64,000 bases of DNA from positions 25,783-89,782 of IMG/VR virus record IMGVR_UViG_3300036402_000045. One strand, written 5' to 3'. Below, one piece after another: positions 1 through 64,000 of the stretch. Within the stretch, counting starts at the first letter, position 1. Each line of letters begins with the position of its first letter. The translations under genes were made by a program, and so were the position numbers. The notes beneath the pieces are model-generated. The model searched no databases and had not been told where the DNA came from. It saw only the letters and a program-made list of their open reading frames with translations. This stretch comes from a virus.

Positions 1-283
1 CGACAACAAGCCATTGCCCAGTGTTCGGAAAATCCTGCCAATGCCCCCATGTCGGAAGATCCTCTTCTGGATTGCGATAGGTCGCTACAGCAACCACCCG
101 CACCGACTCAGGCTTGACCCAGATCTCTTCCGTGGAGAAGTCAGCATGAGGAACACTGACAAGCCGACACTGTTCCGAATCGTTGGAGCAGACAAGATAC
201 CGAGCACCGGATTCACGACGCTGTGCCCAGACGCCCGTGCCGTTGCCGACATAGACCACGATGTCACCGAGCTTCGGATTCAT
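1..283 (-). CDS. hypothetical protein (partial, runs off the window edge)
   Basis: ATG at 283 overlaps the stop of the upstream gene (TGATG); frame MNPKLGDIVVYVGNG... stays open to position 1. Confidence 0.6.
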   Translation of the reverse strand, partial: MNPKLGDIVVYVGNGTGVWAQRRESGARYLVCSNDSEQCRLVSVPHADFSTEEIWVKPESVRVVAVATYRNPEEDLPTWGHWQDFPNTGQWLVV

Positions 284-786
284 CAGTCTCCCGTCCCGTG
301 AGAAGGACGGATATACGGAGCGTTCATGGTGATCGTCGTGTGCTTCGCCACGATCTCAGCATCGATCTTGCCCTCCTGCACCGCCGCAGCAAGACCCGAT
401 GTATCGAGCGCCACGTTCACAGCGCTGGCGACACCGTTCGTCTTCAGAACGTCCATGAGCGCCCGCTGAACCTCCGCAGGAAGCTCGCTCAGGACGAGAG
501 AGCGCCGGTATGCCAAACGCCGCTGCGCGGGCTTGAGATCGCCGTAGAGAGCATCTCCGTCGATGTTGATGTTCTCGGTCTGGACCCGCGTGACCTTCGT
601 GCCGTCGTCAGCGGTCAGGCTCGTCGTTCCCCGAATCTGAAGCTCTTCGCAGATCGAATCCTGAATGCCCTTCTTCGTCTTCTTGGCACGACCCTCGATC
701 TCGGCTTGACGCTCGTACTCCGCGACGAGCACGAAGATCTCGGAGTCCTTGAGCCGCTTCTTAGCCTTCGTCGGCTTGTCAGGCAT
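283..786 (-). CDS. hypothetical phage protein
   Basis: Start MPDKPTKAKK at 786 after RBS AAGGAG; coupled to both neighbours. Confidence 0.75.
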   Translation of the reverse strand: MPDKPTKAKKRLKDSEIFVLVAEYERQAEIEGRAKKTKKGIQDSICEELQIRGTTSLTADDGTKVTRVQTENINIDGDALYGDLKPAQRRLAYRRSLVLSELPAEVQRALMDVLKTNGVASAVNVALDTSGLAAAVQEGKIDAEIVAKHTTITMNAPYIRPSHGTGD

Positions 787-1036
787 CGGCGTTCTCCTTT
801 CGGATTTCGGCCAGAGCAAGCTGCGCCACCAGTGACGACGCCTTGGCCTTCGAGAAGCCCGTGATCCCGTGAGCCTTGGCAAGCTCCCGGAGATCCTTGA
901 CCTTCATCGCTTCGAGATCCGCCACGCCGAGACGCTTGGACCGAGCGATGCACTCGTTCGGAACCGAAGTGCGGTTGGTCGTGTTGTGATGGGCGCGGCG
1001 ATCGTGCTTGGCCGAACGCTGGTTCTTGGTCGCCAT
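779..1036 (-). CDS. small protein with Rho-N/HeH-like domain
   Basis: DLEAMKVKDLRELAKAHGITGFSKAKASSLVAQL fits the Rho N-terminal helix-extension-helix pattern. Confidence 0.7.
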   Translation of the reverse strand: MATKNQRSAKHDRRAHHNTTNRTSVPNECIARSKRLGVADLEAMKVKDLRELAKAHGITGFSKAKASSLVAQLALAEIRKENADA

Positions 1037-1230
1037 CAGACCGCCGCCGTCTTCCGAACCGGACGGCGAAGAGCCGTGGCGATGCGGTCACACCGCGCCA
1101 GAAGAGCGGGCTTGTCAGCCTGAGCGATGAAGCGGTCCGAGCGAACAGCGAGCACCTTGTCAGCCACGACATTCCGGAGGTACTCAAGATCACTCCGCTC
1201 GATCTCGATTGTCACCTTGTTCTTGTCCAT
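1036..1230 (-). CDS. hypothetical protein (likely leaderless)
   Basis: ATG at 1230 lies 7 nt downstream of a -10 box; stop overlaps the next ATG. Confidence 0.7.
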   Translation of the reverse strand: MDKNKVTIEIERSDLEYLRNVVADKVLAVRSDRFIAQADKPALLARCDRIATALRRPVRKTAAV

Positions 1231-1237
1231 GCCCCTC

Positions 1238-1266
1238 ACCTTAGTAGAATGTTTCCGAAGTTGCAA
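1238..1266 (-). promoter_or_regulatory. sigma70-type promoter with operator-like spacer
   Basis: TTGCAA-N17(cttcggaaacattctac)-TAAGGT, then 7 nt, then ATG. Confidence 0.7.
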
Positions 1267-1279
1267 GTCGAAATTTCAG

Positions 1280-1750
1280 TCAGCGCAGATTTTGGAGAAT
1301 CGCTCTGCGCTCCATGAGCAGGATGCCCAAGAGGTTCGAGCCTGCCCAGTGTCCGGAAGGCGTGCGCGTCATGCCCCAGATCCGATCGCCCCAAGTGTTG
1401 CCTTCGACCAAGATGGCGTTGCCCGTGGCAAGCAGATCGTTAGCGAGCGTTTGGGTTTCCGAAAACTTGCATGACAGAGCGAAGCGCATGACTTCGATCT
1501 TCCGTTGCTCCCAGTCATCAGCGAGCGGAGCCTTGCGACCGAGCTTCTTGGCATTGCCCGCGTTGCTTGCCGTGAGAATGCGCTGTTGCCATTCAGGATC
1601 GTCTGTCTTCGCTGCCTGATAGTGATGTTCCACCGTGGCGTAAGGAACGCCCCTGAGACGATAAGGAGAGGCATAGAAGTTCGACAGGAACCCGTGCGGT
1701 CCGTCCAGCCGAAAGTCATCGATGATCGTGTAGCCCAACGCCTTCTTCAC
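1280..1750 (-). CDS. NADAR (YbiA-like) family protein
   Basis: FLSNFY, YATVEHHYQAAK, AKKLGR, LVEGNTWGDRIWG and GSNLLGILLM motifs. Confidence 0.92.
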   Translation of the reverse strand: MKKALGYTIIDDFRLDGPHGFLSNFYASPYRLRGVPYATVEHHYQAAKTDDPEWQQRILTASNAGNAKKLGRKAPLADDWEQRKIEVMRFALSCKFSETQTLANDLLATGNAILVEGNTWGDRIWGMTRTPSGHWAGSNLLGILLMERRAILQNLR

Positions 1751-2016
1751 TTCTCAAGCCCCTTCAGAAACTCAGTGACAAAAGCGAAACACTCGTCGTC
1801 CGTTGCGTCGTCAAACGCAACCGGCTCTGCTCCGTCTCCATACATGCGCCACCCAACAGCATCGGTGCCGTCGTCATTGGGAACCAATGCAAGAGCAAAG
1901 CCGCGAGGATGAAACACAACCCGGTTGATGAGCCAAAGCATTCCAAGGCTCCGAAGTTCCTCGAAGGAATGCACCGTCTCTTCGGGAACCGTGTCGAATA
2001 CGGACTTGCGCGTCAT
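1747..2016 (-). CDS. hypothetical phage protein
   Basis: MTRKSVFD...GMLWLINRVVFHPRGFALAL; 4-nt overlaps with neighbours. Confidence 0.7.
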   Translation of the reverse strand: MTRKSVFDTVPEETVHSFEELRSLGMLWLINRVVFHPRGFALALVPNDDGTDAVGWRMYGDGAEPVAFDDATDDECFAFVTEFLKGLEK

Positions 2017-2273
2017 TTCAGAATCTCGATCTCGTTGTCGTAGAAGTAGTAGATGTCGTGGAACCCGTTGATGCGGTCCATCAACCAATCGTGAACGGGA
2101 ATCCGAATCTCCGGACCCTGCCACGGACAAAGCAGAACCTTGTTCGGGTACTTGTCGGAGTCGTTCTCCAACAGAACGCCCTCAGACCCCTCGAAGAAGC
2201 GTCCAGAGGGATCGTTGTATGCAACCCGGACCCGAATGGCATCGGGGCTTGCAAGAGCCTCTTCGGGCGTCAC
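2013..2273 (-). CDS. hypothetical protein
   Basis: 86-aa ORF with translational coupling on both sides. Confidence 0.65.
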   Translation of the reverse strand: MTPEEALASPDAIRVRVAYNDPSGRFFEGSEGVLLENDSDKYPNKVLLCPWQGPEIRIPVHDWLMDRINGFHDIYYFYDNEIEILK

Positions 2274-4027
2274 AGGAGATCCCGAATGTTCTGGAGCGTG
2301 ATGCGCTCGATCTGTCGGCCACCGTCTCGCTCGATGGTCCGGTTGGCAAGCGCCCGCTTGTAGTTCAGGAGCGCTTCGATCCTCTGCTCGATCGTGTCTT
2401 CGGCCTGAAGCTCGATGACGTTGACCGTCGTGGCAAGAGCCTCCAGGCCACGCAGACCGCCCGCTGCGGAACGCCCGATGGCCTGATCGTTACCTGCCGG
2501 TGTCCAACCCTTGTCGGTGAAGACGACGTAGGTGGCAACGCCAAGGTTGATGGCCTCGCGGTTCGCATCGATGGTTCCGATGTAGAGCTTGCAATCCTCG
2601 TCGTTGTTGAACCTTCGGATTTCCTCCTGCCGACGACGCAGGTTGATCTCACCGGTGACATACGCCGGGGAATAAGCCTCAAGCTCCCGCTGGATGATGC
2701 GGGTTGCCTTGCTCCACTGGGAGAAGATGATCGCCTTCTCACCGTTGGCGACAAGCTCCCGAACGATGTCCTTCAGTTCGACGATCTTGGCCGAATCCTT
2801 CGACCCGCCGTAAAGCTCCGGAGAGAAGCAAGCCTGCTTCAGCCGGATGATCTGCGGAAGAGCACCGTTGATGTTTCGGATTTCGCCGTTGTCCATGCGA
2901 AGGATGAACTCGTCACGGATCTCGTTGTAGAGCGCCCGAGCTTCACGGGTCAGTTCGATCACGCGGGGAGCGATGATGACCTTCGGAAGATCCTTGAGCA
3001 CCTGATCCTTGCGACGACGCAGGGAGATGTTCTGAATGAAGTCCCGAAGCTCGCCCATCGGCTCCGGGCGGTAGCCAACCGTGGCACCGCCGTTCTTGAT
3101 GGAGATCGCGTCCACGAACCGGTCGTAGATCGGAAAGTCTTCCGGGTAGAGCTTGTGCAGAACGCTCCAGATCTCTTCCGGACGATTCAGGATCGGCGTG
3201 CCCGACATCATCAGCCAACGCTTGCCCTCAAGCTGGAAGAAGCCACGCGTGACCTGAGCATCCGGAGTCTTCACCCGATGGTGCTCATCAACCACGATGA
3301 AGTCGTACTCGAATCCGAAAAGCTCTTCGTTGGCGAACTCGTATCCGATGATCTTCTTGTGAACGTTGCCGTCCTCGTAGATCGGCTTGGCCCGGATCGC
3401 CTCAAAGTTGACGACGGTGATCTCGGCCCGCTTCTCGATCTGTGCAGAGCGCTCTGCGCGTGTTCCGTTGACGACCTGAACCTCGAAGTCGAACTTGTCC
3501 GTGGCTTCAGATTCCCAGTTGAACTTCGCGCTGTTCGGGCAGACGACGAGCGTGCGGAACTGCTTGCCCTTCTTCTCGGCCTTCACCGCCATGATGCGGA
3601 TCGCAGCCAGAAGCATGATGGTCTTCCCTAGACCCATCTCGTCATTGAGAAGATCGATCTCTTCCTCCAGGATCTTCCCGACCGCAACCTTCTGGAAGTT
3701 GTAGAGCTTGCCTTCGAAGCCCGGAATCCGAAGCTTCGGAATCGGCATATCCGCAAGCCGCTTCTCTTCGGCTCGCGTTAGCCGTGCGTAGACGCCCTTC
3801 GAAAGCTCTGCCATCGGGAACGCCAACGACAGACGATCGAAGTACCGCATGTTGAACCGGAAGAGCCACTTGCTCAATTCCTGGTCGTACTCCGCAACGG
3901 GATCGGTGCCGAGAGGAAGGATCTCGCGCATGATGACGCTCTGCGCCTCGTACTTCTCGCTGGAGTCACACATCAAGACGATGTGCTTGCCCCTCGGATC
4001 GTTCTTCTTCGACAAGGTGATCTTCAC
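2270..4027 (-). CDS. SNF2-family (SF2) helicase/translocase
   Basis: DEMGLGKT (Walker A), VVDEHH, SGTPILN, IIFSQW, EAINL motifs; GTG at 4027 is 7 nt after a -10 box. Confidence 0.92.
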   Translation of the reverse strand: MKITLSKKNDPRGKHIVLMCDSSEKYEAQSVIMREILPLGTDPVAEYDQELSKWLFRFNMRYFDRLSLAFPMAELSKGVYARLTRAEEKRLADMPIPKLRIPGFEGKLYNFQKVAVGKILEEEIDLLNDEMGLGKTIMLLAAIRIMAVKAEKKGKQFRTLVVCPNSAKFNWESEATDKFDFEVQVVNGTRAERSAQIEKRAEITVVNFEAIRAKPIYEDGNVHKKIIGYEFANEELFGFEYDFIVVDEHHRVKTPDAQVTRGFFQLEGKRWLMMSGTPILNRPEEIWSVLHKLYPEDFPIYDRFVDAISIKNGGATVGYRPEPMGELRDFIQNISLRRRKDQVLKDLPKVIIAPRVIELTREARALYNEIRDEFILRMDNGEIRNINGALPQIIRLKQACFSPELYGGSKDSAKIVELKDIVRELVANGEKAIIFSQWSKATRIIQRELEAYSPAYVTGEINLRRRQEEIRRFNNDEDCKLYIGTIDANREAINLGVATYVVFTDKGWTPAGNDQAIGRSAAGGLRGLEALATTVNVIELQAEDTIEQRIEALLNYKRALANRTIERDGGRQIERITLQNIRDLL

Positions 4028-4034
4028 AAGCACC

Positions 4035-4064
4035 AATCTAACAGCTTCGGAATGTTTACGTCAA
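4035..4064 (-). promoter_or_regulatory. sigma70-type promoter with operator-like spacer
   Basis: TTGACG-N18(taaacattccgaagctgt)-TAGATT. Confidence 0.7.
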
Positions 4065-4081
4065 GCGAATATTCGGAAACC

Positions 4082-4204
4082 CAGAGAGGGTCCGGTCGCC
4101 TTTCCCCGTCCGATCCCCCGCCAAGGGAATCGTGGGTTAGTGAACGCTTGGGGAAAAGCGCAGGCGACCTTGATCTCCGAAAGGCTGGAGACTGACCCTC
4201 TCTG
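4082..4204 (-). ncRNA. candidate structured non-coding RNA (~122 nt)
   Basis: Perfect 11-bp terminal stem 4082-4092/4194-4204; nested stems 4094-4101/4162-4169 and 4101-4107/4150-4156; hairpins 4111-4132 and 4174-4191; CGTATCA just upstream on the minus strand. Confidence 0.65.
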
Positions 4205-4209
4205 AGACT

Positions 4210-4216
4210 TGATACG
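4210..4216 (-). promoter_or_regulatory. CGTATCA promoter-like element
   Basis: Same heptamer precedes several start codons by 6-7 nt; here it precedes the structured RNA. Confidence 0.6.
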
Positions 4217-4220
4217 CAGA

Positions 4221-5060
4221 TCAGCGAACCTCGGAAGGCGTGATCTCGCTGCGTAGAATCCTCGCTCTGGCCCTCTCGATGCGCTCTGCGGCTGCGCGAG
4301 CATCGGCCTCGGCCATCTGTCGGCGTTGGGCCTCCAGACGCTCACGGCGCTCTCTGGCGATGCGCTCTTCCTCTGCTCGAACAGCCACCACGTTGACATA
4401 CCGGACCGGTGCCTGAATTCGGTACCGCGGGTGCTCCACTTGGCAGAAGTCTGAAGGGCAAGCGCCCTCCGTGCTGCCTTCGGACTGGGCGTTGCAATGA
4501 AAGCAACGAGGCGTGAACTCGATCGTCACGGCCCGCTGCGGGAAGTGAAGTGAACGCTCCGAGAAGAGCCGATCGCGGCCGATGTCGTGAACGAGCATCA
4601 GAAGCTCTTCGGCCATCGTCACGTACGTCTCTTCCGCATCAGAAGCGAACCGCCGCCACAGCTTCATCTCACCGCGACGCGTGATGTAGGCAAACGCCTT
4701 GTAACGCCCATCGATGTAGCGCTTGAGCACACGCTGACCCGTGAGATCGCCCGACGTAACGAGATGCACGTTGTAGCGGTGAGTTTCGGAAATCCCCGTA
4801 ACCTCGTAGACGCCATTGGGAACGTTCCAGCCATCGAACTCTGTCGCCACGTCATCGATGGAACGACCGGCAAGCTGCGTTGCCAGAGCCTCGACCGCTG
4901 CCGTCTGCTCCACGGTAAGGGTCAAGCTCGATCCGAGAACGTCGGAGTACCGCTGCATGTCTGCATGAAAGCGAACAGCCGGATCACTCAGGATCGAGAC
5001 AACCTGCGGGAACGCAGAGAACCACGCGGGATCGAGGTTGGTGATGTTGTAGGTCGGCAT
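4221..5060 (-). CDS. hypothetical protein with CxxC pair and C-terminal coiled coil (leaderless)
   Basis: 279-aa ORF; CFHC...CPSDFC; ATG 6 nt after a -10 box. Confidence 0.75.
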   Translation of the reverse strand: MPTYNITNLDPAWFSAFPQVVSILSDPAVRFHADMQRYSDVLGSSLTLTVEQTAAVEALATQLAGRSIDDVATEFDGWNVPNGVYEVTGISETHRYNVHLVTSGDLTGQRVLKRYIDGRYKAFAYITRRGEMKLWRRFASDAEETYVTMAEELLMLVHDIGRDRLFSERSLHFPQRAVTIEFTPRCFHCNAQSEGSTEGACPSDFCQVEHPRYRIQAPVRYVNVVAVRAEEERIARERRERLEAQRRQMAEADARAAAERIERARARILRSEITPSEVR

Positions 5061-5066
5061 ACAGAG

Positions 5067-5095
5067 ATCCTAAGGGATAAACATTCCGAAGTCAA
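5067..5095 (-). promoter_or_regulatory. sigma70-type promoter, spacer motif in inverted orientation
   Basis: TTGACT-N17(tcggaatgtttatccct)-TAGGAT-N6-ATG. Confidence 0.75.
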
Positions 5096-5121
5096 GACGG
5101 AGATTGCTAAGCGGCAGATTT

Positions 5122-5520
5122 TCAGCGATCGGAATAGAGGCTGTTGTGAGCCTTCACCCAATCACCATCAGCGATGAGCTTGCCACGGGGCTTACCGAGG
5201 TAGTGCCACGCAGAGCACTTGATCTCGGTGCCTCTGATCGGGTCGTGAGCAACCACGTCCCAAAGGGCATAGCCCGCACCGCGCTCCATACGGTCGATGC
5301 TCTTCCACGACGGACTGTTGTGTCGGAACGTCAGGACATCGCCGGTGATGGTGCCCGACTGATCGAGCTTGGCGACTGGGTAGCTGCCGAACTCAGAGAC
5401 GAAGTAGATCTTCCCCTCGATGGTGCAGTTCGGAATGATGTCCTCGTAGCCACCACGGTCGTTCCACGCGTTCGGTCGGAGCGTTCCGTACACGAAGCAG
5501 GAGATGAGATGGTCGCTCAC
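5122..5520 (-). CDS. gamma-glutamylcyclotransferase (GGCT/AIG2-like)
   Basis: FVYGTLR signature, YP motif, IDRME. Confidence 0.85.
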   Translation of the reverse strand: MSDHLISCFVYGTLRPNAWNDRGGYEDIIPNCTIEGKIYFVSEFGSYPVAKLDQSGTITGDVLTFRHNSPSWKSIDRMERGAGYALWDVVAHDPIRGTEIKCSAWHYLGKPRGKLIADGDWVKAHNSLYSDR

Positions 5521-6032
5521 TTCTGAGCCGCCTTTTCGAACAGGTCGATGATGACCGCAACATCGAAGGTGACGGTGTTGCCTTCGTTGCCTTGGAAGAA
5601 GGTGTAGTTCTCGTCTTCGACCAGACGAGTACCCGTGAGCGTCAGAACTTTCCGCTCAAACTTGATCCGCTGACTCTCTGATTCGATCCGCTTCAGAAGG
5701 TACTCTCTTTCGGAATCAAGCTGTTCTTGAACCCGCTCACGGAACCGCTCCGTCATCGGTGACAACGACTGGGGATGAGCAAGAACAGGAACCCACGTCA
5801 TGTTGTGGACGTTGAACGCCGCAAGAGCGACCTTCGTGGCTTGGCGCTGGACGCCGTACTCATCGGTGTAGCGCCCCTTCTTGTCGGCCTTGACGTACTC
5901 CTTCGTCTTGGCGTCCCGATACCAACGCTCGATGTCAAGAACGAGCGACAGGAACGGACGAGAGGACGAGTACCGACCACCGGGTCGGGAGTAGATGACC
6001 TCCCGACCCTGCTCGATCTCCGAAAGCTTCAT
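5517..6032 (-). CDS. hypothetical protein
   Basis: 171-aa ORF coupled to both neighbours. Confidence 0.7.
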   Translation of the reverse strand: MKLSEIEQGREVIYSRPGGRYSSSRPFLSLVLDIERWYRDAKTKEYVKADKKGRYTDEYGVQRQATKVALAAFNVHNMTWVPVLAHPQSLSPMTERFRERVQEQLDSEREYLLKRIESESQRIKFERKVLTLTGTRLVEDENYTFFQGNEGNTVTFDVAVIIDLFEKAAQK

Positions 6033-6898
6033 GCCTGCACCCCAGCGGCACGCAGAGCGGCCTCAAGAGCGTCACGGGACATCGTTCCCCGACCGGCGAT
6101 GTTGTGCGTTGCGGCAAGCCGACGAAGGGCGTCACGGTTCAAACCGGAAAGCCCGTCGTCGTCGGAACCAACGATCGCCCGCATGATGCCTTGTGCCTCG
6201 GCAAGCTCGTCATCGGTGTATTCCCGCTCTTCGCCGTCCTCGTCGTCCTCGATCTCGCCTGAGAGCATGGCGTTGATCTCATCGATCCCCTGCGCGGCCT
6301 CGTCCTCGATCAGAGCATCGACGTAATCGGCAACCGCCGCCATCGTCGTGTCGGACGGAACCTCTTCGACCACCAGACGGCCCGAGATGTTGTCGGCGCG
6401 TCCTTCGGAAACCAGCGCGTCCCATGTCTCCTGCGTGTAGATGGCGCGGGCCACGACACCGGGGATGCGGCCCTCACGAACCCGAGCACGGAACATCGTC
6501 GGCTTGGCGGCGTAGAAGAGCGAGCACGCCCAAGCGAACGAGTCCAGGCGAGAACCCGTCGAAGCGTTGATGTGCTGGCGCAGGCCCGTGAACAGATCGA
6601 TCACGGTGAACCGCTTCAGCGTCAGCGTTCCCGGCGTGTTCGCAGCGGACAGGCTCATGCGCTGGCCCGGTCGATAGCTGTACCGCTGCCAGATGTGACC
6701 GGCGACGTGGATCGTCGGCACCGGCAGCGACCGGTACGACTCACAGATCGCCGTGACCATCGGCATGACGGCCTCGATCTTCTCGGCGTCCGTCTCCAGA
6801 CGCCACGGCTTCGCCTCGAAGAGAGCGACAGCGGCAGCAACCGCATCCTCTCGGATCTCTCGGTACTTCAGGTGTGGCCGCTGAACGGTCATCGGCAT
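6029..6898 (-). CDS. hypothetical protein with acidic linker and C-terminal Rho-N-like domain
   Basis: C-terminus LSGLNRDALRRLAATHNIAGRGTMSRDALEAAL; RBS AAGGGAG. Confidence 0.75.
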   Translation of the reverse strand: MPMTVQRPHLKYREIREDAVAAAVALFEAKPWRLETDAEKIEAVMPMVTAICESYRSLPVPTIHVAGHIWQRYSYRPGQRMSLSAANTPGTLTLKRFTVIDLFTGLRQHINASTGSRLDSFAWACSLFYAAKPTMFRARVREGRIPGVVARAIYTQETWDALVSEGRADNISGRLVVEEVPSDTTMAAVADYVDALIEDEAAQGIDEINAMLSGEIEDDEDGEEREYTDDELAEAQGIMRAIVGSDDDGLSGLNRDALRRLAATHNIAGRGTMSRDALEAALRAAGVQA

Positions 6899-6930
6899 TG
6901 CGCTCCCTTTCGGTTGTAGTCGTCGTGCTG

Positions 6931-6959
6931 AGTATGGATCGGAATGTTTCCGATGTCAA
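6931..6959 (-). promoter_or_regulatory. sigma70-type promoter with perfect palindromic operator
   Basis: TTGACA-N17-CATACT; ATCGGAA-TGT-TTCCGAT at 6938-6954. Confidence 0.8.
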
Positions 6960-6968
6960 GAAGGTTTC

Positions 6969-7460
6969 TCATGCATCCTCGGTTTCCTTGTCACCAACCA
7001 GAAATCTCGGACCATTGACAGAGACGATCGCCCAACGGAACCAAAGCACCGTCTCGCAATCCCATCCGTAGAGATCGTGAGGCTGTGAGTGGCGCGTACG
7101 CCACTGACCCTCTTCGGTCAGGTGCATACCGTCGTACTCCCGAGCCATCGCTTCGAAGTCAAGACCGGTGGTATACCGATCCCCCACGCCGAACCGCTTG
7201 TGCAGATCATTGAGATCCGCAACGGTGTCAACGACAGCGAGGTTCGGGTTGTCGATCGTCTCCAGATCCCAGAGCGTGAACGGCGGTCCACCGAATTTTT
7301 CGGAAACACACCAGTCAACCCAATGGCTCTCGTTGGTCGGATGAGGGGGAGAAGTCCACAACCCACCACTGAGCGGCTTCTTCCACGGATGCGTGCAATT
7401 CACGATCGGCTTGAACGACTGATAACGAGGCTTCTTCACGCCTTGGAAGATGACCTTCAC
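6969..7460 (-). CDS. hypothetical phage protein
   Basis: 163 aa; KPLSGGLWTS, LDFEAMAREYDGMHLT, LYGWDCET. Confidence 0.75.
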   Translation of the reverse strand: MKVIFQGVKKPRYQSFKPIVNCTHPWKKPLSGGLWTSPPHPTNESHWVDWCVSEKFGGPPFTLWDLETIDNPNLAVVDTVADLNDLHKRFGVGDRYTTGLDFEAMAREYDGMHLTEEGQWRTRHSQPHDLYGWDCETVLWFRWAIVSVNGPRFLVGDKETEDA

Positions 7461-8419
7461 TGATCCGCCTTGCGCTTCTGCGGCTGGCCGTCAGGGAAGA
7501 GACGCTTCTGCGCCCTCTCGTCCTGCCTGCGCTCCAGATAGGCACGGATGGCGGCGTCCCTGCCCATCCCGTATTCGAAGCCCGTAGAGACAGCCACAGG
7601 CCGTGTCGGTGACGTTGCAGAACCCGTTCCCCGGTAAGACGGATCGGTTCCGAACCTCACCGCGATCTCTGCGGCGGTCAACACCTTCGGACGAGGACGA
7701 GGCCGGAACGTCTTCCGCTCCACGATGTCACCGTACGAAACGGCAAGCACCCGATCTTCGGAAACCGTCGAGAACTTCGTGAAGACGATATCCGGCTCAA
7801 GCTGAAGCAGAGCTTCCTTGTCCGAGGCCCAGATCAGGTTCCCGCGGTCGGTCCACCCGAGCGTCAACTGACGGCCCGTGCTCCGAGCGATGTAGATCGT
7901 GTCGGGTTCCGTGATCCGGCTGTAGACCGCAACCATCGCGCCCTTGATCTTCCGAAGCCCCTTGATGTGGCCCCACTTGTTGACCGCAGCGAAGATGGCC
8001 TCGGAGTCAACCTCGGTCTTCGGATCTTCCCGACCCGTCACGTCCAGAATCTCTTCGAAGTTCGTGAGAACGCCGTTGTGAACGCCCACGATGTCACCGT
8101 GCGGGATCGGATGGTTGTTCCGCACGTCAGCGGGATCACCGTTGGTGGCCCAGCGCGTGTGGCCGATGACCCAGTAGGCGTCATCCGAGACGTTCTTCAG
8201 AATGTTCTCCAGAGCGCTGTTCGTGTCACAGCGACCGGGGAACTTGGCCCACGTCACGTCGGGCTTCGTCGGATCGGTGTCCTTGTTCGGAACCCACTGT
8301 GCCCACCCGTAAGCGTGCGGTCCCTGTCGGACCAGAGCAGGGAAGAGGATGGCGGCGATCTGCGCCGTGCTCAGATCCTCTTCGTTCTCGTTGTATGAGA
8401 TTCCCCAAATTCTGCACAT
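7457..8419 (-). CDS. class II (Ntn) glutamine amidotransferase
   Basis: N-terminal Cys (MCRIWG), IGHTRWATNG, NNHP, HNGVLTN, VDSE. Confidence 0.92.
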   Translation of the reverse strand: MCRIWGISYNENEEDLSTAQIAAILFPALVRQGPHAYGWAQWVPNKDTDPTKPDVTWAKFPGRCDTNSALENILKNVSDDAYWVIGHTRWATNGDPADVRNNHPIPHGDIVGVHNGVLTNFEEILDVTGREDPKTEVDSEAIFAAVNKWGHIKGLRKIKGAMVAVYSRITEPDTIYIARSTGRQLTLGWTDRGNLIWASDKEALLQLEPDIVFTKFSTVSEDRVLAVSYGDIVERKTFRPRPRPKVLTAAEIAVRFGTDPSYRGTGSATSPTRPVAVSTGFEYGMGRDAAIRAYLERRQDERAQKRLFPDGQPQKRKADQ

Positions 8420-8447
8420 CGGCTATCGCCTTCCTCTCTCGTAGTTG

Positions 8448-8476
8448 ATTGAATCATGCTTCGGAATGTTTGTCAA
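8448..8476 (-). promoter_or_regulatory. sigma70-type promoter with operator-like spacer
   Basis: TTGACA-N17(aacattccgaagcatga)-TTCAAT. Confidence 0.7.
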
Positions 8477-8477
8477 C

Positions 8478-8714
8478 TCAGTCATCGTCAAGCGCGTTTT
8501 CGCAAACCGCCTGAATCGTGATGATCGCCGTCCTGAGTCCGTCCACGTCATCAAGAGACGTAGCTGCCGCCATTCCGATTGCGTGGACGTATCGCTCCCA
8601 CTTATCGCTTGCGACCTTGGCGCACTCGACCGGGATATCCAGCTTCTCTCCCCGGCTTGCGCGGACCTGCACAGCAATGGCCGCTTCCTCTGCTTGCTCG
8701 CGAGCGCCCATCAC
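8478..8714 (-). CDS. hypothetical protein
   Basis: 78-aa ORF coupled to the upstream gene. Confidence 0.6.
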   Translation of the reverse strand: MMGAREQAEEAAIAVQVRASRGEKLDIPVECAKVASDKWERYVHAIGMAAATSLDDVDGLRTAIITIQAVCENALDDD

Positions 8715-9906: not shown

Positions 9907-9948
9907 TGGCTCCCTTGCCTGTCCTTGTCGGCTCGTCCCGACAACCTC

Positions 9949-10341: not shown

Positions 10342-10361
10342 AGCGACCTTTCGGAAAGTGG

Positions 10362-10673: not shown

Positions 10674-10679
10674 GCCCTC

Positions 10680-10708
10680 AGTCAACATCACTTCAGAATG
10701 TTTGTCAA
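10680..10708 (-). promoter_or_regulatory. sigma70-type promoter with operator-like spacer
   Basis: TTGACA-N17(aacattctgaagtgatg)-TTGACT. Confidence 0.65.
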
Positions 10709-10754
10709 CAGGAAATCTCACGGAACGTTCGGAAGGTCGGCGTATCATCCGAAC

Positions 10755-11208: not shown

Positions 11209-11586
11209 TCAAGCTCTCTTCCGTTTGGCCTCGGCTTTGGGACGCTCGTAGACGTGAACCAGAATGGCAACAATCTTTCCGTCTTCACGGACCTGTTCTC
11301 GTCGCACATAGCCACGCTCAACGAGTTCCTTCATGGCCGACCTGACCGAGAACTCTCCATCGGTCTTGGCTTTGGAAAGTTCCTCTACAAAGAAGTGCCA
11401 GTCATCCGGTCGGCTAAGCATGAACGCGAGCAAGCCCGTGGCTTTGAAGCTCAAGAGCGGATCACGCAGAGTGTCGTTCTCTATGCGTGTGTACGTCTCA
11501 TGCTTCTTGATTCGGTGGATGGTCTTCGAATCGAGCGTCATCTGTCTGACGGCAAGGGAACTGACCTTCTGATTCTTGGCTGTCAT
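11209..11586 (-). CDS. winged-HTH phage replication-initiator-like protein
   Basis: YTRIENDTLRDPLLSFKATGLLAFMLSRPDDW...SAMKELVERGY; RBS AGGAG. Confidence 0.8.
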   Translation of the reverse strand: MTAKNQKVSSLAVRQMTLDSKTIHRIKKHETYTRIENDTLRDPLLSFKATGLLAFMLSRPDDWHFFVEELSKAKTDGEFSVRSAMKELVERGYVRREQVREDGKIVAILVHVYERPKAEAKRKRA

Positions 11587-11912: not shown

Positions 11913-11927
11913 TCTACACTTTCGGAT

Positions 11928-13802: not shown

Positions 13803-14278
13803 AGCTCTTGGTCTGTGGCTCCCGTGATTGGGACGACGAGAACACCATCTGGTCGATCCTCGACGGCTACTACGAGAACGACACACTGGGCCACCTGACA
13901 GTCACGATGGCGTCGTTCACATTGATCGAAGGCGGGGCCAAGGGAGCGGACGCTTGCGCTCACCGATGGGCAAAGAACAGCCCGCTGCATTCGCACAACG
14001 AGCGACCTGATGATCCGGAGTTCCGTCACGTCACGGTCAATGCGAAGTGGGACGAGCATCATCCCAAGTGGTGTCCTTCGGACTGGTGCGCCGCGCGGGA
14101 CTACTGCGTTGGTGCCGGTCCTCGTCGCAACCAACGAATGATCGATCGACACAAGCCCGATCTCGTTCTCGCATTCAAGAACGGGTTCAACTGGAAGCTC
14201 AACAAGGGCGGCACCGAAGACATGGTTTCCCGCGCCATCGCAGCAGAGATCGATTACTACGTGATCGGAAGGAAGTAA
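13799..14278 (+). CDS. SLOG family (DUF2493/YspA-like) protein
   Basis: LLVCGSRDW, IEGGAKGAD, AGPRRNQRM, GGTEDM. Confidence 0.85.
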   Translation: MKLLVCGSRDWDDENTIWSILDGYYENDTLGHLTVTMASFTLIEGGAKGADACAHRWAKNSPLHSHNERPDDPEFRHVTVNAKWDEHHPKWCPSDWCAARDYCVGAGPRRNQRMIDRHKPDLVLAFKNGFNWKLNKGGTEDMVSRAIAAEIDYYVIGRK

Positions 14279-14985
14279 TGCCCCGCACCAAGCTCAAGGA
14301 GCATCCGGCTCCGTTCTCGAACGTCATCCTCGATCAGTTGCGGATCATGGTTGCCGCCGAACAAGAGCGCCGTCATGGATTTGGAATGTCTACCAACCTA
14401 AGACTTCTCGATCCGTTCGCTGGCATAGGGAAGATCCACAACATCGGCGGTCACGGAATCAAAACCGTAGGCGTAGAGCTTGAACCCGAATGGGCCGCAT
14501 GGCACGCTGCGACCATCGTTGGCAACGCTCTGGATCTGAAGTTCCGCAGACACAGCTTCGACATCATCGCGACCAGCCCGTGTTACGGAAACCGGATGGC
14601 CGACCACCACAACGCACAGGACGGCTCACACAGGCGTAGCTACAAGCACTACCTCGAACGTGACCCTTCTCCCATGAGCGCAGGGGTCATGTATTGGGGA
14701 GACGAGTACCGGGAGTTCCACACCGAAGTCGTCATCGAGCTTGACCGTGTGCTGCGCCCCGGTGGTCTGGTGCTCTGGAACATCTCCAACCACAAGAAGA
14801 CGATCAACAAGGGACAGCCCGCCGTAGAGCAGAAGGTCAGCGAGTGGTACATGGCGCTGTTCCTCGGCATGGGTTGGACCCTCCAAGAAGTGCGCCCGAT
14901 CAAGACGCCCCGCTACAAGTACGGATCGAATTCCGAAACCCGTACCGAGTTCGAGTTCATCATCGCCATGAGAAAGCCGTTCTAA
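14278..14985 (+). CDS. DNA amino-methyltransferase (N4C/N6A type)
   Basis: LLDPFAGIG (motif I), TSPCY (SPPY-like motif IV), RVLRPGG. Confidence 0.8.
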   Translation: MPRTKLKEHPAPFSNVILDQLRIMVAAEQERRHGFGMSTNLRLLDPFAGIGKIHNIGGHGIKTVGVELEPEWAAWHAATIVGNALDLKFRRHSFDIIATSPCYGNRMADHHNAQDGSHRRSYKHYLERDPSPMSAGVMYWGDEYREFHTEVVIELDRVLRPGGLVLWNISNHKKTINKGQPAVEQKVSEWYMALFLGMGWTLQEVRPIKTPRYKYGSNSETRTEFEFIIAMRKPF

Positions 14986-15356: not shown

Positions 15357-15929
15357 ATGTTCCTGTCTGACCACGACATCATCGAAGCCGTCGCCACGGG
15401 TGCTCTTGAGATCACACCGTTCGACCCAGAGGCCGTCCAGCCTGCGTCTGTTGACCTGACGTTGGACGACAAGCTCTTGGTCTTTCACCACGACACGGTG
15501 CGGATCGACCCTCGCGAGGAAGTGCAGATGAAGAGCCTTCCGAAGCGTTTCCGAAACGCACCACCGGAGTTCATCCTGAAGCCGTTCCAGTTCGCTCTTG
15601 CGGCGACCCGAGAGAAGGTGTCGTTGGGTCCGGGACTCGTCGGAAGGCTCGAAGGCAAGTCGTCTCTCGGGCGTCTCGGGCTGACGAGCCACGTCACGGC
15701 GGGCTTCTTCGATCCGGGCTTCAGCGGATACGCAACGCTGGAGTTGTTCAACGCGAGCGGCAAGCCCTTCGTGCTCATCCCTGGCATGAAGATTTGCCAG
15801 ATGAGTTTTGCTCTCACGGTCACACCATCGGTCAACCCGTACGGCTCCGACAAGCTCACGTCGAAGTACCAGAATCAAGAGCGCGGTCCAAAGGGATCGC
15901 AGTACCACAAGAACTTCGAATCCAAGTGA
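15357..15929 (+). CDS. dcd: dCTP deaminase
   Basis: LSDHDI, QPASVDLTL, EGKSSLGRLGL, AGFFDPGFSG, TLELFN, SKYQNQ. Confidence 0.95.
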   Translation: MFLSDHDIIEAVATGALEITPFDPEAVQPASVDLTLDDKLLVFHHDTVRIDPREEVQMKSLPKRFRNAPPEFILKPFQFALAATREKVSLGPGLVGRLEGKSSLGRLGLTSHVTAGFFDPGFSGYATLELFNASGKPFVLIPGMKICQMSFALTVTPSVNPYGSDKLTSKYQNQERGPKGSQYHKNFESK

Positions 15930-33576: not shown

Positions 33577-34017
33577 TCAGACCTTGAAGACCTTCGCCAT
33601 GACGAGGTACACGATGATGGCGCAGGCAGTAGCGAGCAACGCCGTCTGCCAATCAAGATGACCGTCTTCGTTCGGAGTCTTCTTCCCGCGAACCGTGGCA
33701 CCGGGAATCATCTTGAGACGAGCCGGATCATCCGAAGGGCGCTTGGCCGAGAGGTAGTCGGCGGCGAGGCCAGCACCAGATCCAACGGACAAGCCGATGG
33801 CAATGAGGGAGTAGGCGTTCATCTTCGCCAGCGAGCCGCCGATGTCGATCTGCGAAGCGAAGTCGGTCTGTGCGTAGAGCACGACGGCGACAACGCCCGC
33901 AAGCCAAGCGGAGGCCGTGGTCACGATGCCGTTGATGTCGCGGTTCGTGAGGTACTTGGTGAAGTCGATCACCTTCTTCACCAACGCCAGCATTGCGAGT
34001 ACGGGTACGAATTCCAT
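33577..34017 (-). CDS. holin-like membrane protein
   Basis: Several hydrophobic helices; RBS AAGGAG; downstream of the endolysin. Confidence 0.65.
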   Translation of the reverse strand: MEFVPVLAMLALVKKVIDFTKYLTNRDINGIVTTASAWLAGVVAVVLYAQTDFASQIDIGGSLAKMNAYSLIAIGLSVGSGAGLAADYLSAKRPSDDPARLKMIPGATVRGKKTPNEDGHLDWQTALLATACAIIVYLVMAKVFKV

Positions 34018-63500: not shown

Positions 63501-63941
63501 AGCAGACCGATAGAGGTTTACATCAGCACCGAAGTTCATGGTGGCGTCGAACCGCTTCGCTCCCGTGATCGTCTGTGCCGTTGCCAGCGTGACGTAGTTG
63601 TTTGGGAGCAGATTCAGTTCGATCTGCGTTGCGATGTCGATCGGCTTCCACCGAGCGGTTCCGGTATCCCACGCCAGAACGCTGTCTTGAGCAAGTCCCG
63701 CAAGCGCAACGTCCTTCAGACCCGCGATCGTGTGCGGTCGGTCAACGAACTGCGCCTCGACCTGATCCAGAGCCGCCTGCACGTCTCCAGCGGTAACCCA
63801 GACGTTTCCCGTGGCGTCGTAGGCGATGTTCGGAGCCGTGTCGGGCGGATAAACCGCAAACAACGACGACACTTCGATGATGTCGGGCGCGTCCTCGCGA
63901 ACGAAGACACGATCAACGATGTCCATTGAAGTGACGGTCAT
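57501..63941 (-). CDS. giant repeat-containing fibre/structural protein
   Basis: 2146 aa, Gly/Ala/Thr-rich; about 13 copies of a ~30-aa xxKGAxxQTGDLxxWQxSAGxVLAxV motif. Confidence 0.8.
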   Translation of the reverse strand: MTVTSMDIVDRVFVREDAPDIIEVSSLFAVYPPDTAPNIAYDATGNVWVTAGDVQAALDQVEAQFVDRPHTIAGLKDVALAGLAQDSVLAWDTGTARWKPIDIATQIELNLLPNNYVTLATAQTITGAKRFDATMNFGADVNLYRSAADTLKTDDAFSVGGSVFLRPAADPNVLIVPTAANYRGIAVRGFTAQTANLQEWQDPVGAVLARVSSTGNIYSPYISTTFGLFANGGNGVYGAALGVLASTTNGHIGAVVRGAVGNSASLQEWHDNAGTWKARINTPAQSGVPLLDVTDTGYYVGVARFTSAVSGGSVQLAAGMANPQGESIFAGGATGGNRPATVVAVLPAADKVGLLVRGAAAQIGNLQEWQDSASAKRQWVDASGQSFYATSQVANQTSKITDLGMYFSRSTDGTYTTWIQSTAGTTPALQLQAQGAIDYYPGGGALQFRMATSDMSAPNGGFTAGTYFRGSSNGRLGIISDPSLGDDIGIVLQRGTRSVQGSNALVSFNYGAYGTAIAGMELARITTEGRLGLGTVAPAAMIHANISAASVVGQITRGAAAQTGDLAQWQDSAAAIVAKITAAGLIQGSSLNARNAGQGAAFIDAYDTTKAASAFTIDGYGRMALGLASYGYTWISTPTGSDLQLNPGQGVLVTPGGGAFTGLKVNGRGVAATVTNKALTGNVATITTAAAHGLSVGRRVSVAGVDATFNGNFSITATTATTFSYAKTAADVASVASAGSVAGDIQAASIESWHNGISETLMLLNPNAPAISNGTAGNGGDVTLRSFKPWGAGVGPVIQFEALSSGENLAPAAYASITGGKENVSITNGRGMFSVFTSGAVWGRRLDIGSEGGLVINPLAQSAAGTIMQVIGLSAGHTGNALEVRNSASTVLTKINEAGGVTSYDASTTGFTLRSAPGSETPIFQVLKNGASGAVLASPSSTMILKSGVPLQVLIDASNHSPGAIPIALRAHVSQTANLSEWQDSTGAVYSAVGPTGWNSVMSPAGVGGLLGSALFEARTNNGSHYLFRGSTVGGAQFGIKATNIIEWTGTPLQFIPTGGGGPGVQFTTYTASVAVAAFRGVASQTGDLTQWQDSASTVLARVTGAGYPRFHQGLGVGTLGDAQGQGSIIHVRDDGSATMAYLDRQSSTASAGIDFRRAMAGTTALDAANRVMGRLLAWGFDGGSYRTAAAIDLTSDAPFAAGSAPGRISFYTTLSATTGIVERVRIDNAGSTSHYPAVNANGVRVKNPAGATANGAPFIIEDEASSNPLMRISHLGGIALGLAAAWPSEGQVRMAGSNPGIYFEPAGALKWLFYTAGGSTMYFRDAVNSRMHETLQPGADANAAVSYFDSRVHAGTATNQNAQLSSIVSSPSTPGLLVKLAASATADALQIKDSADNPLLYVPAAGGEVRFHGRTFSTVGGDLANGHPWLGYNIRGAGATTSRDSTGTVAGIRAQGNFVNIFAVVSGTAGASITPKFQVGTSTTSFYSDAGVLNATVDNNGTIWSLNGLTLPAGVGTTYDNKWLTYSTGGSYFIRDTVNAVMAAQFTPGTSPTTIFNGAVQARAVAATDVPLLAKAAAAQTADLTQWQDSAGAVLSRVRANGENLVPYYTGYGFGATTGQYGMYQNGGASLEFLLGGAVKLTVGTNVSVTAGTTFVANGQYFRNNGSTDTYIEQQSGVRYWQIGVFGTDWKVRDLTGTTDRLFIASAGPTTVTPASASLAALVAKGAVSQTGNLQEWQNSAGTVLAKVDSTGRVFGNGFTGVSVSEPPVATLHFKAMAGQVAPTLRAENSGGASFFRVAADGYPEADVLYAADIRGGRSGLTGTNGALLTLTGTHSVVFNNGQNKITQNDPVNYSMGFYGADTAGAGGARLLELGATTQINARNAASIGLIVKGAVSQTGDLTQWQNSAGTVLAKVTASGGFASYGGPTYLGGELAFPGTGSEMAVYTTDAGAHQFFFDHRGGNAGSGWNFRNGATSMFRIDGSGNVTVPTASGVLDAWGQVRVGGLAGSGAPGALITGSKSASEVAFVARGFAGQTGDLLQIQNSAATVVARITASGAAQFTDIGPNRFVDALVPTRTVMRTHADGNLSLFVDTSGFGGGVGVVKIADATTVPTTNVAGGLLYSEGGALKWRGSAGTVSVLAPA

Positions 63942-64000
63942 CGAGTGACTTGCTCCTTGATCGTGACGGTGCCCTCAGCCCACGGGATCTTGATGATGTC
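63938..64000 (-). CDS. 3' end of an upstream gene (partial)
   Basis: Open frame ...DIIKIPWAEGTVTIKEQVTR* with ATGA coupling to the giant gene. Confidence 0.55.
   Translation of the reverse strand, partial: DIIKIPWAEGTVTIKEQVTR

Follow-up and report, generated by a model that had tools for sequence, protein, structure and literature searches.

Why would a phage write one short palindrome into its genome every few hundred bases, inside its genes as well as between them? The question is raised by a 64,000-bp stretch of viral DNA (the window), which spans positions 25783 to 89782 of one viral contig, 89,782 bp long and of soil metagenome origin, IMGVR_UViG_3300036402_000045 (G000 below). The window is studded with the heptamer TTCSGAA, that is TTC(C/G)GAA. 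A reading made from the letters alone (the sequence-only reading) had described this lattice and suggested that a phage DNA-binding protein coats or organizes the whole genome and also represses promoters. We find that the word is enriched by selection at the level of the DNA and that it has a regular place in early promoters, and we tentatively propose, with a little less than even confidence, that the heptamers serve throughout the genome as weak operator half-sites of a protein encoded by the phage, the best candidate for which is the product of a small open reading frame (ORF), g037. CheckV rates the contig as 88% complete and linear. A crude codon-score caller of our own yielded 138 ORFs, with 89% of the contig coding, and the Pfam scan covered 60 of these 138 ORFs. 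Coordinates refer to the window unless the contig is named.

Selection on the DNA rather than the protein

An exact count gives 121 copies of TTCSGAA in the window, one per 529 bp, in agreement with the roughly 120 counted by hand, and all 13 of the example coordinates that accompanied the hand count are in the exact position list. The whole contig holds 185 copies (2.06 per kb, one per 485 bp), and every 5-kb bin contains between 5 and 16 of them. Base counts put the G+C content of the window at 58.8%, which replaces the estimate of about 60% made by eye; the zero-order expectation of 5.9 copies is close to the figure of about five that had been derived from base composition. Markov models of orders 1 to 3 predict 13.1, 24.1, and 28.0 copies, respectively, and dinucleotide-preserving shuffles (n = 100) give 13.81 ± 3.54 with a maximum of 27, so that none of the 100 reaches 121. 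TTCSGAA ranks first among the 7-mers of the window (121 copies versus 74 for the runner-up), despite being an A+T-rich word in DNA with 58.8% G+C. The commonest 8-mer, TTCGGAAA (57 copies), and the commonest 9-mers, GTTTCCGAA (26) and TTTCCGAAA (21), are extensions of the same word. In a maximal-order Markov ranking the 7-mer does not stand out, since the excess is already contained in its 6-mer sub-words.

Most copies lie inside ORFs, as had been claimed: 108 of the 121 in the window and 150 of the 185 in the contig (81%). The coding sequence itself therefore had to be taken into account. When synonymous codons are shuffled inside each ORF, with the 35 copies outside ORFs held fixed, the window is expected to hold 34.0 ± 4.5 copies (maximum 47 in 200 shuffles) and the contig 63.1 ± 4.5, versus 121 and 185 observed; for coding DNA alone the figures are about 28 versus 150. 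Codon permutation predicts 49.5 copies in the contig. Even a first-order codon model (dicodon model), which takes the observed codon pairs as given and thereby absorbs part of the signal, making it very conservative, predicts only 57.5 copies in the window genes versus 106 observed, and 79.7 versus 151 in the contig (1.9-fold, z of about 8). The excess thus survives correction for both codons and dicodons. The synonymous-shuffle null is somewhat low, because the two control words AAGSCTT and GAASTTC also exceed it, by 1.7- to 1.9-fold.

The excess is not tied to one way of encoding a peptide. Each of the six orientation-by-frame classes is enriched, by 3.3- to 11.5-fold over the synonymous shuffle, and Ser-Glu pairs are spelled TCC-GAA in 64 of 163 cases, GAA being the minor Glu codon; the use of otherwise uncommon codons at the sites had been pointed out in the sequence-only reading. 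Selection acts on the DNA rather than on the protein, as that reading had concluded. The residues under the word show an amino-acid identity of 0.40 versus 0.45 elsewhere in comparisons with motif-free relatives, and 0.39 versus 0.47 with motif-bearing ones, an effect so small that we do not use it as evidence.

The unit under selection is short and has a definite geometry. TTCGAA and TTCNNGAA are 1.1-fold over expectation, i.e., unenriched, which means that exactly one base must separate the two triplets. The flanks carry little information beyond W (A or T) beside the core: when all copies are turned to have G at the centre, A follows in 90 and T in 48 of the 185, and the intergenic consensus reads TTCGGAA-W-G-T-T. 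The symmetric 9-mer TTTCSGAAA is dominant in two relatives introduced below, G001 and G004. The heptamer had been described as often extended; this holds for extension on at least one flank (69 of the 121 window copies), and the full 9-mer is found in only 21 of the 121. Since a longer conserved unit is absent, the copies are not a mobile element. Among 425 words with one mismatch, the outer-letter variants ATCSGAA/TTCSGAT (110) and the centre variant TTCWGAA (50) lead; their 2.1- to 2.25-fold excess means little, because the control words already reach 1.7- to 1.9-fold.

Promoter placement, pairing, and spacing

The 35 copies outside ORFs are spread over the 10.7% of the DNA that lies there, which corresponds to twice the in-ORF density. 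Many belong to a repeated composite that reads, on the gene strand, TTGAC(A/G/T), 4-7 bases, TTCCGAA, 3-6 bases, and a hexamer resembling a -10 element, often with one to three further copies just upstream of the -35 and with a start codon that follows the predicted transcript start almost at once, by a few bases. The offsets of the heptamer from the start of the -35 are fixed, at 5 or 10-13, and the extra copies lie at about -45 to -60. Eight composites are located at most 61 bp from a start (contig 15093, 15470, 18478, 29846, 30877, 32741, 34258, and 36490), and two more are farther from called starts. Contig positions 15093, 15470, and 18478 fall outside the window; the other five correspond to window positions 4064, 5095, 6959, 8476, and 10708. 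The composites within the window, together with one doubled copy inside a gene, are as follows.

4035..4078, minus strand: early promoter TTGACG-18-TAGATT, heading the SNF2 helicase gene, with 9 of 12 consensus matches and TG before the -10; spacer heptamer at 4046-4052 and a second one at 4072-4078, just upstream of the -35.
5067..5095, minus strand: early promoter TTGACT-17-TAGGAT; the heptamer at 5084-5090 begins within the -35 hexamer.
6931..6959, minus strand: early promoter TTGACA-17-CATACT, with 10 of 12 consensus matches; the spacer holds two one-mismatch heptamers as an inverted 7-3-7 pair (ATCGGAA aca TTCCGAT).
8448..8476, minus strand: promoter-like composite TTGACA-aaca-TTCCGAA, with the spacer heptamer at 8460-8466.
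10680..10734, minus strand: promoter-like composite TTGACA-aaca-TTCTGAA (centre variant), with a perfect heptamer upstream at 10728-10734, back to back with a CGTATCA element at 10741.
15538..15555, plus strand: doubled word TTCCGAA gcgt TTCCGAA within the coding sequence for dCTP deaminase.

A scan for consensus sigma-70 promoters in window 1-12200 returns four sites, and all three of those on the gene strand carry the word or a one-mismatch form of it; the scan by itself does not exceed shuffled sequences (4 versus 2.6). The word is placed at fixed spots in sigma-70-like early promoters. One called gene (10362-10688) starts inside the composite at window 10673-10708; a likelier start, which would be leaderless, is the ATG that follows the -10-like hexamer by a few bases, at about 10673.

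The genome also has a second promoter-like class, (T)TG-CGTATCA followed by 6 bases and ATG, with at least nine copies 13-14 bases before a start.

12106, 18354, 20903, 26559, and 32857, plus strand: CGTATCA elements, 13-14 bases before a start.
57451 (18 bases before a start) and contig 5493, 7239, and 8368, minus strand: promoter-like CGTATCA elements on the other strand.

Their spacing to the ATG implies leaderless transcripts of replication and late genes. We find no heptamer at a fixed distance from the CGTATCA promoters, and for this reason reject the possibility that the word serves as the -35 element of this class.

A doubled form of the word, two half-sites separated by TGT, had been reported from promoter spacers. 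The promoter at 6931..6959 has an inverted pair with one-mismatch halves in its spacer. Most promoter spacers hold a single heptamer, and doubled forms are a minority, with only 18 pairs in the entire contig. Tests for helical phasing or doubling give only weak peaks, at offsets 9 and 11 (7 and 5 pairs versus 2.5 expected).

The copies have no consistent orientation across genomes. In frame 2, where the centre letter is synonymous, the two orientations relative to transcription are found in ratios of 50:19 in G000, 20:24 in G001, and 8:9 in G004. Their spacing along the contig is more even than random: the coefficient of variation (CV) of the gaps is 0.79 versus 0.99 ± 0.07 for random placement (P = 0.0002), the variance-to-mean ratio is 0.7, gaps below 100 bp number 16 versus 34 expected, and 49 ORFs are without any site versus 63.6 expected. 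The density of about 2 per kb is even along genes and across gene classes. The under-dispersion for which the sequence-only reading proposed to look is therefore present in this contig, and we return below to the relatives, where the same does not hold.

About 12 kb to the left of the window, contig 12900-14100 is non-coding and resembles a replication origin. Two copies of TGTGGACAA, a word of the actinobacterial DnaA-box type, lie there inside a 31-nt inverted repeat (contig 13450-13536). The same region holds two inverted 7-2-7 pairs, TTCGGAA-cg-TTCCGAT, at contig 13047 and 13092, and six perfect heptamers within contig 12962-13670.

Lineage distribution, the candidate reader, and turnover

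Megablast of window 20000-28000 against cultured phages covers at most 1% of the query, and tblastn of a 602-residue protein from the head region returns matches of 24-32% identity, to five records named "Bacteriophage sp." (unannotated, from human fecal samples) and one Flavonifractor phage, Cormatin. Judging from these searches and from the tblastn of g037 described below, the contig appears to be without a close cultured relative. Searches with the capsid protein led to 13 related viral contigs, in which we counted the word and, as a control, the reversed word. G000 has 185 copies versus 22 of the control; the counts in ten relatives are as follows.

G001, 81 kb: 134 versus 7.
G004, 78 kb: 32 versus 12.
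G002: 5 versus 3.
G003: 6 versus 3.
G308, 81 kb with terminal repeats, 100% complete: 4 versus 8.
G307: 1 versus 2.
G310, a 16-kb fragment: 20 versus 1.
G005, a fragment: 7 versus 1.
G309, a fragment: 0 versus 2.
G311, a fragment: 1 versus 1.

Of the 32 copies in G004, 24 are the full 9-mer, for which 0.2 would be expected. The word is lineage-specific: dense in two near-complete relatives, at background level in three. By capsid identity the genomes with the motif do not group together as nearest relatives: in identity to G000, the motif-free G002 (69%) and G003 (66%) lie between G001 (77%) and G004 (62%). The share of copies inside genes in G001 is 107 of 134.

A tblastn search of the 138 ORFs against the five near-complete relatives finds only three that are present in G001 and G004 yet not in G002, G003, or G308.

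contig 19010-19249, plus strand: g037, a 79-residue stand-alone helix-turn-helix (HTH) protein similar to sigma region 4; outside the window, 6.5 kb to the left of window base 1.
5122..5520, minus strand: g060, with the same presence pattern; presumably GGCT-like and not a DNA binder.
33577..34017, minus strand: g108, a membrane-protein ORF with the same presence pattern, which looks holin-like by its hydrophobic segments.

In a search with a profile built from 12 homologues, g037 is again found once in each of G000, G001, and G004, and it is not found in G002, G003, G308, or G307. The presence of the word tracks the presence of g037, and on this comparison g037 is the best candidate for the reader among the phage genes. 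A 2,037-bp metagenome contig that encodes a homologue with 72% identity contains five heptamers where 0.2 would be expected, and two of the five lie in the promoter region. More distant HTH matches (32-47% identity, on contigs with 51-77% G+C) are not accompanied by an enrichment of the heptamer.

Among solved structures, the 12-homologue profile is most similar to WhiG, a Streptomyces sigma factor, in its region 4.2 (7lq4_A, E = 1.7e-5); the similarity is high across the 25-residue HTH, and two other sigma factors follow with E-values of 0.0015-0.0017. The precomputed domain PF04545 is annotated on two of the 12 homologues, and among the PHROGs the match is to phrog_686, 'HTH DNA binding protein'. 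Judged by eye from the alignment and not from a tool, the stretch before the HTH resembles region 4.1. We predict that g037 consists of an N-terminal helix and a complete sigma region 4, i.e., a tetrahelical HTH of the sigma-4/LuxR-GerE kind. The family is small: of 1.84 billion representative clusters, 230 match at E ≤ 0.001 and 25 at E ≤ 1e-10, with lengths that nearly always fall at 60-115 residues; tblastn finds no homologue in 50,697 GenBank phage records. A recent preprint shows that small HTH proteins of mycobacteriophages are able to act as mimics of sigma domains on the polymerase of the host (10.64898/2026.10.05.756390). The family of these mimics, PF25684, is not matched by g037 in the Pfam scan, and we regard the two as parallel and not as members of one family.

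In three of four cases (G000, L031, and G001, not G004) the word is present in the promoter of the g037 operon. These promoters have a -35/-10 pair, a spacer copy that is perfect or has one mismatch, and one to three perfect copies upstream. To judge from its parts, this is the layout of the promoter of an autoregulated regulator.

The suggestion that a phage DNA-binding protein reads the word thus fits best among the ideas put forward in the sequence-only reading; the particular proteins it named do not hold up. Proteins with Rho_N/HeH domains are poor candidates: relatives of one of them, g045, are also present in motif-free phages, and the other Rho_N match (window 779-1036) is without a relative in the five genomes. 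Neither a WhiB nor a LAGLIDADG protein is matched among the ORFs scanned with Pfam. This leaves the HTH protein encoded at 11209, and the alternative that the reader is this protein, or one encoded in the 12% of the genome that the contig lacks, with g037 being merely a local regulator.

11209..11586, minus strand: g071, a winged helix of the replication-initiator/DnaD type (phrog_4707, E = 6.7e-22; HTH_36 below cut-off).

The occurrence of g071, which has a DNA-binding domain, coincides with the two high-density genomes, G000 and G001; the sites form a cluster in the putative origin; and the relaxed variants AATCCGAA and ATCCGAAA are enriched in these two genomes only. However, G004 is rich in the full 9-mer without having g071. 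Initiators normally bind clustered iterons, and 185 dispersed sites are unlike these. We consider a reader other than g037 of this kind very unlikely.

Short odd palindromes are typical as enzyme sites, and the sequence-only reading had offered as an alternative that the copies mark DNA for modification.

14278..14985, plus strand: g075, a methylase-like ORF with a sub-threshold match to N6_N4_Mtase (24.9 bits, cut-off 26.7), found only in this contig.

Searches with the N6_N4, C5, and D12 methylase domains (PF01555, PF00145, and PF02086) find none in G001 or G004 and the one sub-threshold match in G000, with controls detected in 12-14 of 14 genomes, and the ParB N-terminal domain PF02195 is absent from all five records searched, among them G000, G001, and G004 (control: 11 of 14 genomes). 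These domain searches across the motif-bearing genomes lead us to reject a link of the word to a methylase or to ParB, and the modification alternative is weakened accordingly, the only methylase-like ORF being sub-threshold and unique to one contig.

The word could also be the target of a phage enzyme in a broader sense, i.e., of a methylase or base-modifying enzyme, a nickase or topoisomerase, or a primase that starts there. The contig encodes the methylase-like ORF, a topoisomerase (phrog_6247, E = 3.9e-110), and a DnaG-type primase, and copies cluster in the origin-like non-coding region at contig 12.9-13.7 kb. Nevertheless, the methylase-like ORF and the topoisomerase are without relatives in G001 and G004, the primase is also present in motif-free relatives, and an enzyme site gives no reason for the enrichment or for the placement in promoter spacers. 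The heavy avoidance of other palindromes described below, moreover, suggests that the DNA is not broadly protected by modification. We give little credence to this alternative.

The remaining gene distributions are as follows. The methylase-like ORF, a SLOG ORF, ThyX, and the topoisomerase are confined to G000 among these relatives, and dCTP deaminase and g071 to G000 and G001. Amidoligase and GATase genes are also present in the motif-free G002. Primase, DnaB, DnaE, RecA, SNF2, and the Rho_N protein g045 are present in all. Five further genes or domains were recognized in or beside the window.

contig 24516-25493 (10517-11494 of L002), minus strand: phage DNA topoisomerase, just left of the window, without a relative in G001-G004.
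1280-1750, minus strand: NADAR domain (E = 3e-29).
10114-10341, minus strand: KTSC domain.
29349-30245, plus strand: Cas4-type exonuclease (phrog_1706/1990).
32217-32732, plus strand: DUF1643 (E = 4e-34).

Individual sites turn over quickly. Among the G000 sites in codons that can be aligned with G001, 7 of 59 fall in the same column, versus about 0.08 by chance (G001 has 45 sites in 31.4 kb of alignment); earlier blastn blocks had given 1 of 11 and 1 of 10 sites shared, and homologous positions in the relatives often hold near-cognate words. Conservation of the sites in related contigs, which the sequence-only reading proposed to check, is therefore found for a minority of positions in G001 and not in G004, where none of 50 is shared. 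These alignments suggest that density has been kept much more than individual sites have, with some constraint, or purifying selection, at the level of the site.

The motif-bearing genomes share a second peculiarity. In G000, G001, and G004 the median ratio of observed to expected 6-bp palindromes is 0.29-0.31, versus 0.67-0.74 in three motif-free genomes; for non-palindromic hexamers the median is 0.96-0.99. In G000, 26 of the 64 hexamer palindromes have zero copies, among them GGATCC (0 versus 55 expected), GCCGGC (51 expected), GACGTC (51), GTCGAC (45), and GAGCTC (41), and TTAA is absent versus 77 expected. In G001, 35 of the 64 are absent, with AGCT at 0 versus 262 and CGCG at 1 versus 549 expected. 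The purged sets differ between G000 and G001 (GGATCC 0 versus 51 copies, ATCGAT 54 versus 0, AGCT 332 versus 0), and the G+C content of G000, G001, and G004 is 58.6, 59.0, and 51.4%. This pattern is restriction avoidance of the classic kind in an extreme form. It suggests unmodified DNA and a differing exposure to restriction among phages that share the heptamer, and both favor a phage-encoded reader over a host-specific one. In G001, a second over-represented word, AAASTTT (39 versus 2.5 expected), often occurs as AAAGTTTC or AAACTTTC beside the heptamer, and GGCGCC reaches 87 copies versus 25 expected.

The turnover raises the question of whether the word is used at all. A word resembling the highly iterated palindromes (HIPs) of cyanobacteria might be created and kept by biased repair or conversion, a 'molecular drive', and not by any use in binding; methylation-dependent mismatch repair has been proposed for HIP1. 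As in HIP-type words, one palindrome stands far above the others here: TTCSGAA is the top odd palindrome in G000 and G004 and the second in G001, at 5.3- to 6.0-fold. Few sites are shared, near-cognate words often occupy homologous positions, the leading one-mismatch variants are changed in an outer letter (110 of 425) or in the centre (50), which resembles the outer-letter bias reported in PMC4390886, and the contig is strongly purged of 6-bp palindromes; all of this is in keeping with such a drive. However, a methylase domain of the N6_N4, C5, or D12 type is lacking in G001 and G004, with the single sub-threshold match in G000; the placement in promoter spacers and the under-dispersed spacing would be left unexplained; and the seven columns shared with G001 argue for constraint at the level of the site. 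We regard a drive of this kind as quite unlikely.

Another possibility is that a protein of the host reads the word, e.g., as a Chi-like attenuator of RecBCD, AddAB, or AdnAB, or as a nucleoid protein or regulator, and that the phage passes as 'self'. From the leaderless TTGAC-type promoters, the protein-atlas neighbours, and the DnaA-box-like words, we infer that the host belongs to the Actinomycetota; a scan of the lysin gave no clue, and the relatives of ThyX are scattered over many phyla. As a host-side sample we used 301 genomes of the phylum (Actinomycetota) of a Gaiellaceae metagenome-assembled genome (MAG), 11 of them unpublished and used in aggregate only. The densest has about 0.26 copies per kb (e.g., 339 copies in 1.3 Mb) versus 2.06 per kb in the phage contig, and the ratio to the reversed word is at most about 4, save for genomes with at most 14 copies (up to 4.7-fold), versus 8.4 in G000 and 19 in G001. 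In none of the 301 genomes, a sample chosen by phylum, is the word comparably dense. The density and evenness of the sites would suit a signal that is needed every few hundred bases; the phage has its own RecA and Cas4-like exonuclease and, among the Pfam-scanned ORFs, no Gam-like inhibitor; and the lineage pattern could mirror host range instead of g037. On the other side stand the low densities and ratios in the sampled genomes; the differences in G+C content and purged palindromes between the motif-bearing phages, which hence probably have different hosts; and the fact that a Chi-type orientation bias is seen in one frame class of G000 only and not in G001 or G004. A host reader therefore seems improbable to us.

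Proposed mechanism and comparison with known systems

We return to the proposal of an operator array read by g037. In this scheme g037 would be made early, from a promoter under its own control. The protein would bind a single heptamer as a weak half-site, since the palindrome is too short for a two-HTH dimer, and would bind paired or clustered copies more strongly. By general operator logic, protein bound within the spacer and around -45 to -60 would presumably keep out the host holoenzyme, with the outcome that g037 is autoregulated and the early leftward operons are shut off. The roughly 150 in-gene copies would serve to lift the phage to a density of about 2 sites per kb, which exceeds that of every sampled Actinomycetota genome at least 8-fold. 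We propose that such a high site density might allow a reader of only 7 bp to partition onto phage DNA and to cover it evenly. This coverage could mark, organize, or protect phage DNA, or could recruit polymerase. For the sequence-only idea of a protein that both represses promoters and coats the genome, the fixed placement in promoters thus speaks in favor of the first half, and the coating is conjecture.

Several observations weigh against this proposal. Evenness is missing in G001 (CV of 1.08) and only a trend in G004 (CV of 0.75, P = 0.07). The association with g037 is drawn from three near-complete positives and one 2-kb fragment versus three near-complete negatives, two genes that do not bind DNA, g060 and g108, share its presence pattern, and with the contig 88% complete another reader could lie in the missing part. 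The Pfam matches of g037 are weak and all sub-cut-off (Sigma70_r4_2, 20.6 bits with a cut-off of 25.7; Sigma70_r4, 17.9 with a cut-off of 24.1; and HTH_23). A palindrome of 7-9 bp is shorter than the usual footprint of a two-HTH dimer, full 7-2-7 or 7-3-7 pairs are rare (the 18 mentioned above), and phasing is weak. In G004, 26 of 32 sites are in genes and none is in a recognizable promoter, the g037 promoter being without a copy; on the basis of this pattern, the role inside genes may be the primary one. Of the G000 sites, 52 of 59 are not positionally shared with G001, and none is shared with G004. Finally, the 9-mer is not exclusive to the g037 family: three viral records, G312-G314, carry it without a homologue of g037.

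These records came from a scan of viral contigs for paired 9-mers, which returned at least 80 loci. Among the 30 densest there is no new lattice genome; the densest are tandem arrays on unrelated contigs. Loci L111, L127, and L149 (records G312-G314, 28-35 kb, 61-65% G+C) hold head-to-tail arrays of TTTCSGAAA with a 9-bp period; each record has 8-11 copies, of which 8-10 fall inside some 500 bp, and the arrays flank a small ORF with an excisionase-type HTH.

A bolder version of the proposal, which we consider rather unlikely as it stands, would be that a stand-alone sigma region 4 reads the evenly written word as a viral 'self' code, giving a low-specificity cover of phage DNA only. Its purpose might be to tether the host RNA polymerase through a flap contact, or to shield or organize the DNA, and the word might belong to a larger class, so far undescribed, of TTCC..GAA-type words (TTCCGGAA, TTCCAGAAA) in palindrome-purged phages.

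If the pairing of g037 and the heptamer is true, a 79-residue protein and a 7-bp word would form a testable pair in which viral self and host DNA are told apart by the density of sites and not by their length, and which would also reveal the purpose of such a cover. For phage engineering and codon recoding the word matters as well, as synonymous recoding would erase the lattice. The near-total purge of palindromes alongside the lattice shows how strong the selection on word content is in these phages.

The literature searches made here found no published description of the word or of its arrangement; one for highly iterated palindromes together with phage returned only papers on cyanobacteria, as judged by title and abstract, and among the papers listed for over-represented palindromes in phages none was relevant. 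The known phage-wide arrays of short words are the stoperators of Cluster A, whose role is known, and the repeats of Cluster O, whose role is not; each consists of a few dozen long sites. What sets the present case apart is the scale, a 7-bp word that at about 2 per kb has reshaped codon choice over an entire 90-kb genome, and further the quick turnover between relatives and the co-occurrence with a tiny sigma-like protein.

Three other kinds of iterated word invite comparison. Chi is a short over-represented 'self' mark for a processive machine; it is asymmetric, strand-skewed, and enriched in the host. Neither asymmetry nor skew is found here, nor is enrichment on the host side among the 301 Actinomycetota genomes, in a sample that represents the phylum. 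ParB/KorB lattices differ in their reader, the ParB N-terminal domain being absent from G000, G001, and G004 by the PF02195 search. HIP1 (GCGATCGC), like the alternate HIPs of cyanobacteria, is chromosomal, GC-rich, of even length, and accompanied by a cognate orphan methylase (PMC4390886). The likeness is that of one short palindrome per roughly 0.5-1 kb, in all frames and written into coding DNA; the word described here differs in that it is found in phages, has an odd length, occurs in promoters as well, and is without a methylase in two of three motif-bearing genomes.

Cluster O phages (Corndog and its relatives) carry a 17-bp 7-3-7 dyad, TGTTCGGNNNCCGAACA, in about 34 invariant copies per 70 kb, or one per 2 kb (PMC4351075). 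These repeats are mostly intergenic or near gene starts, their positions are conserved in five phages, and the authors suggest a binding site for a phage regulator, leaving the role unexplained (PMC4351075). On this account both words are short palindromes spread over a whole siphophage genome, between and inside genes, with no clear orientation and absent from host genomes, and the Corndog word with its commonest centre, AAA, includes TTCGGAA. The differences are that the present word has 7 bp, occurs once per 485 bp, lies in genes in 81% of cases, and turns over quickly. The 15-bp Cluster O core GTTCGGNNNCCGAAC is not enriched in the window, with one match at one mismatch versus 0.53 by chance.

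The stoperators of Cluster A are asymmetric 13-bp sites, little over twenty per genome, located in promoters and short intergenic gaps (PMC9283540). Their orientation is tied to transcription, and their reader is the monomeric, two-domain immunity repressor of 183 residues (L5 gp71-type) of temperate phages (PMC9283540). The likeness is that one phage protein is thought to serve early promoters and many sites throughout the genome. The present word is a 7-bp near-palindrome, whose flanks add at most W, with its 185 copies lying in ORFs in 150 cases; its orientation has no consistent link to transcription (50:19, 20:24, and 8:9); and its candidate reader has 79 residues and resembles sigma region 4. 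The sequence-only reading had called the lattice analogous to, denser than, and unlike the stoperators. The analogy would be one of function, and the density is indeed greater; the unlikeness extends to length, symmetry, location, and reader. On our reading the array works most like the operators and stoperators of Cluster A and looks most like the repeats of Cluster O, and it departs from the defining features of both in length, symmetry, location, copy number, and reader.

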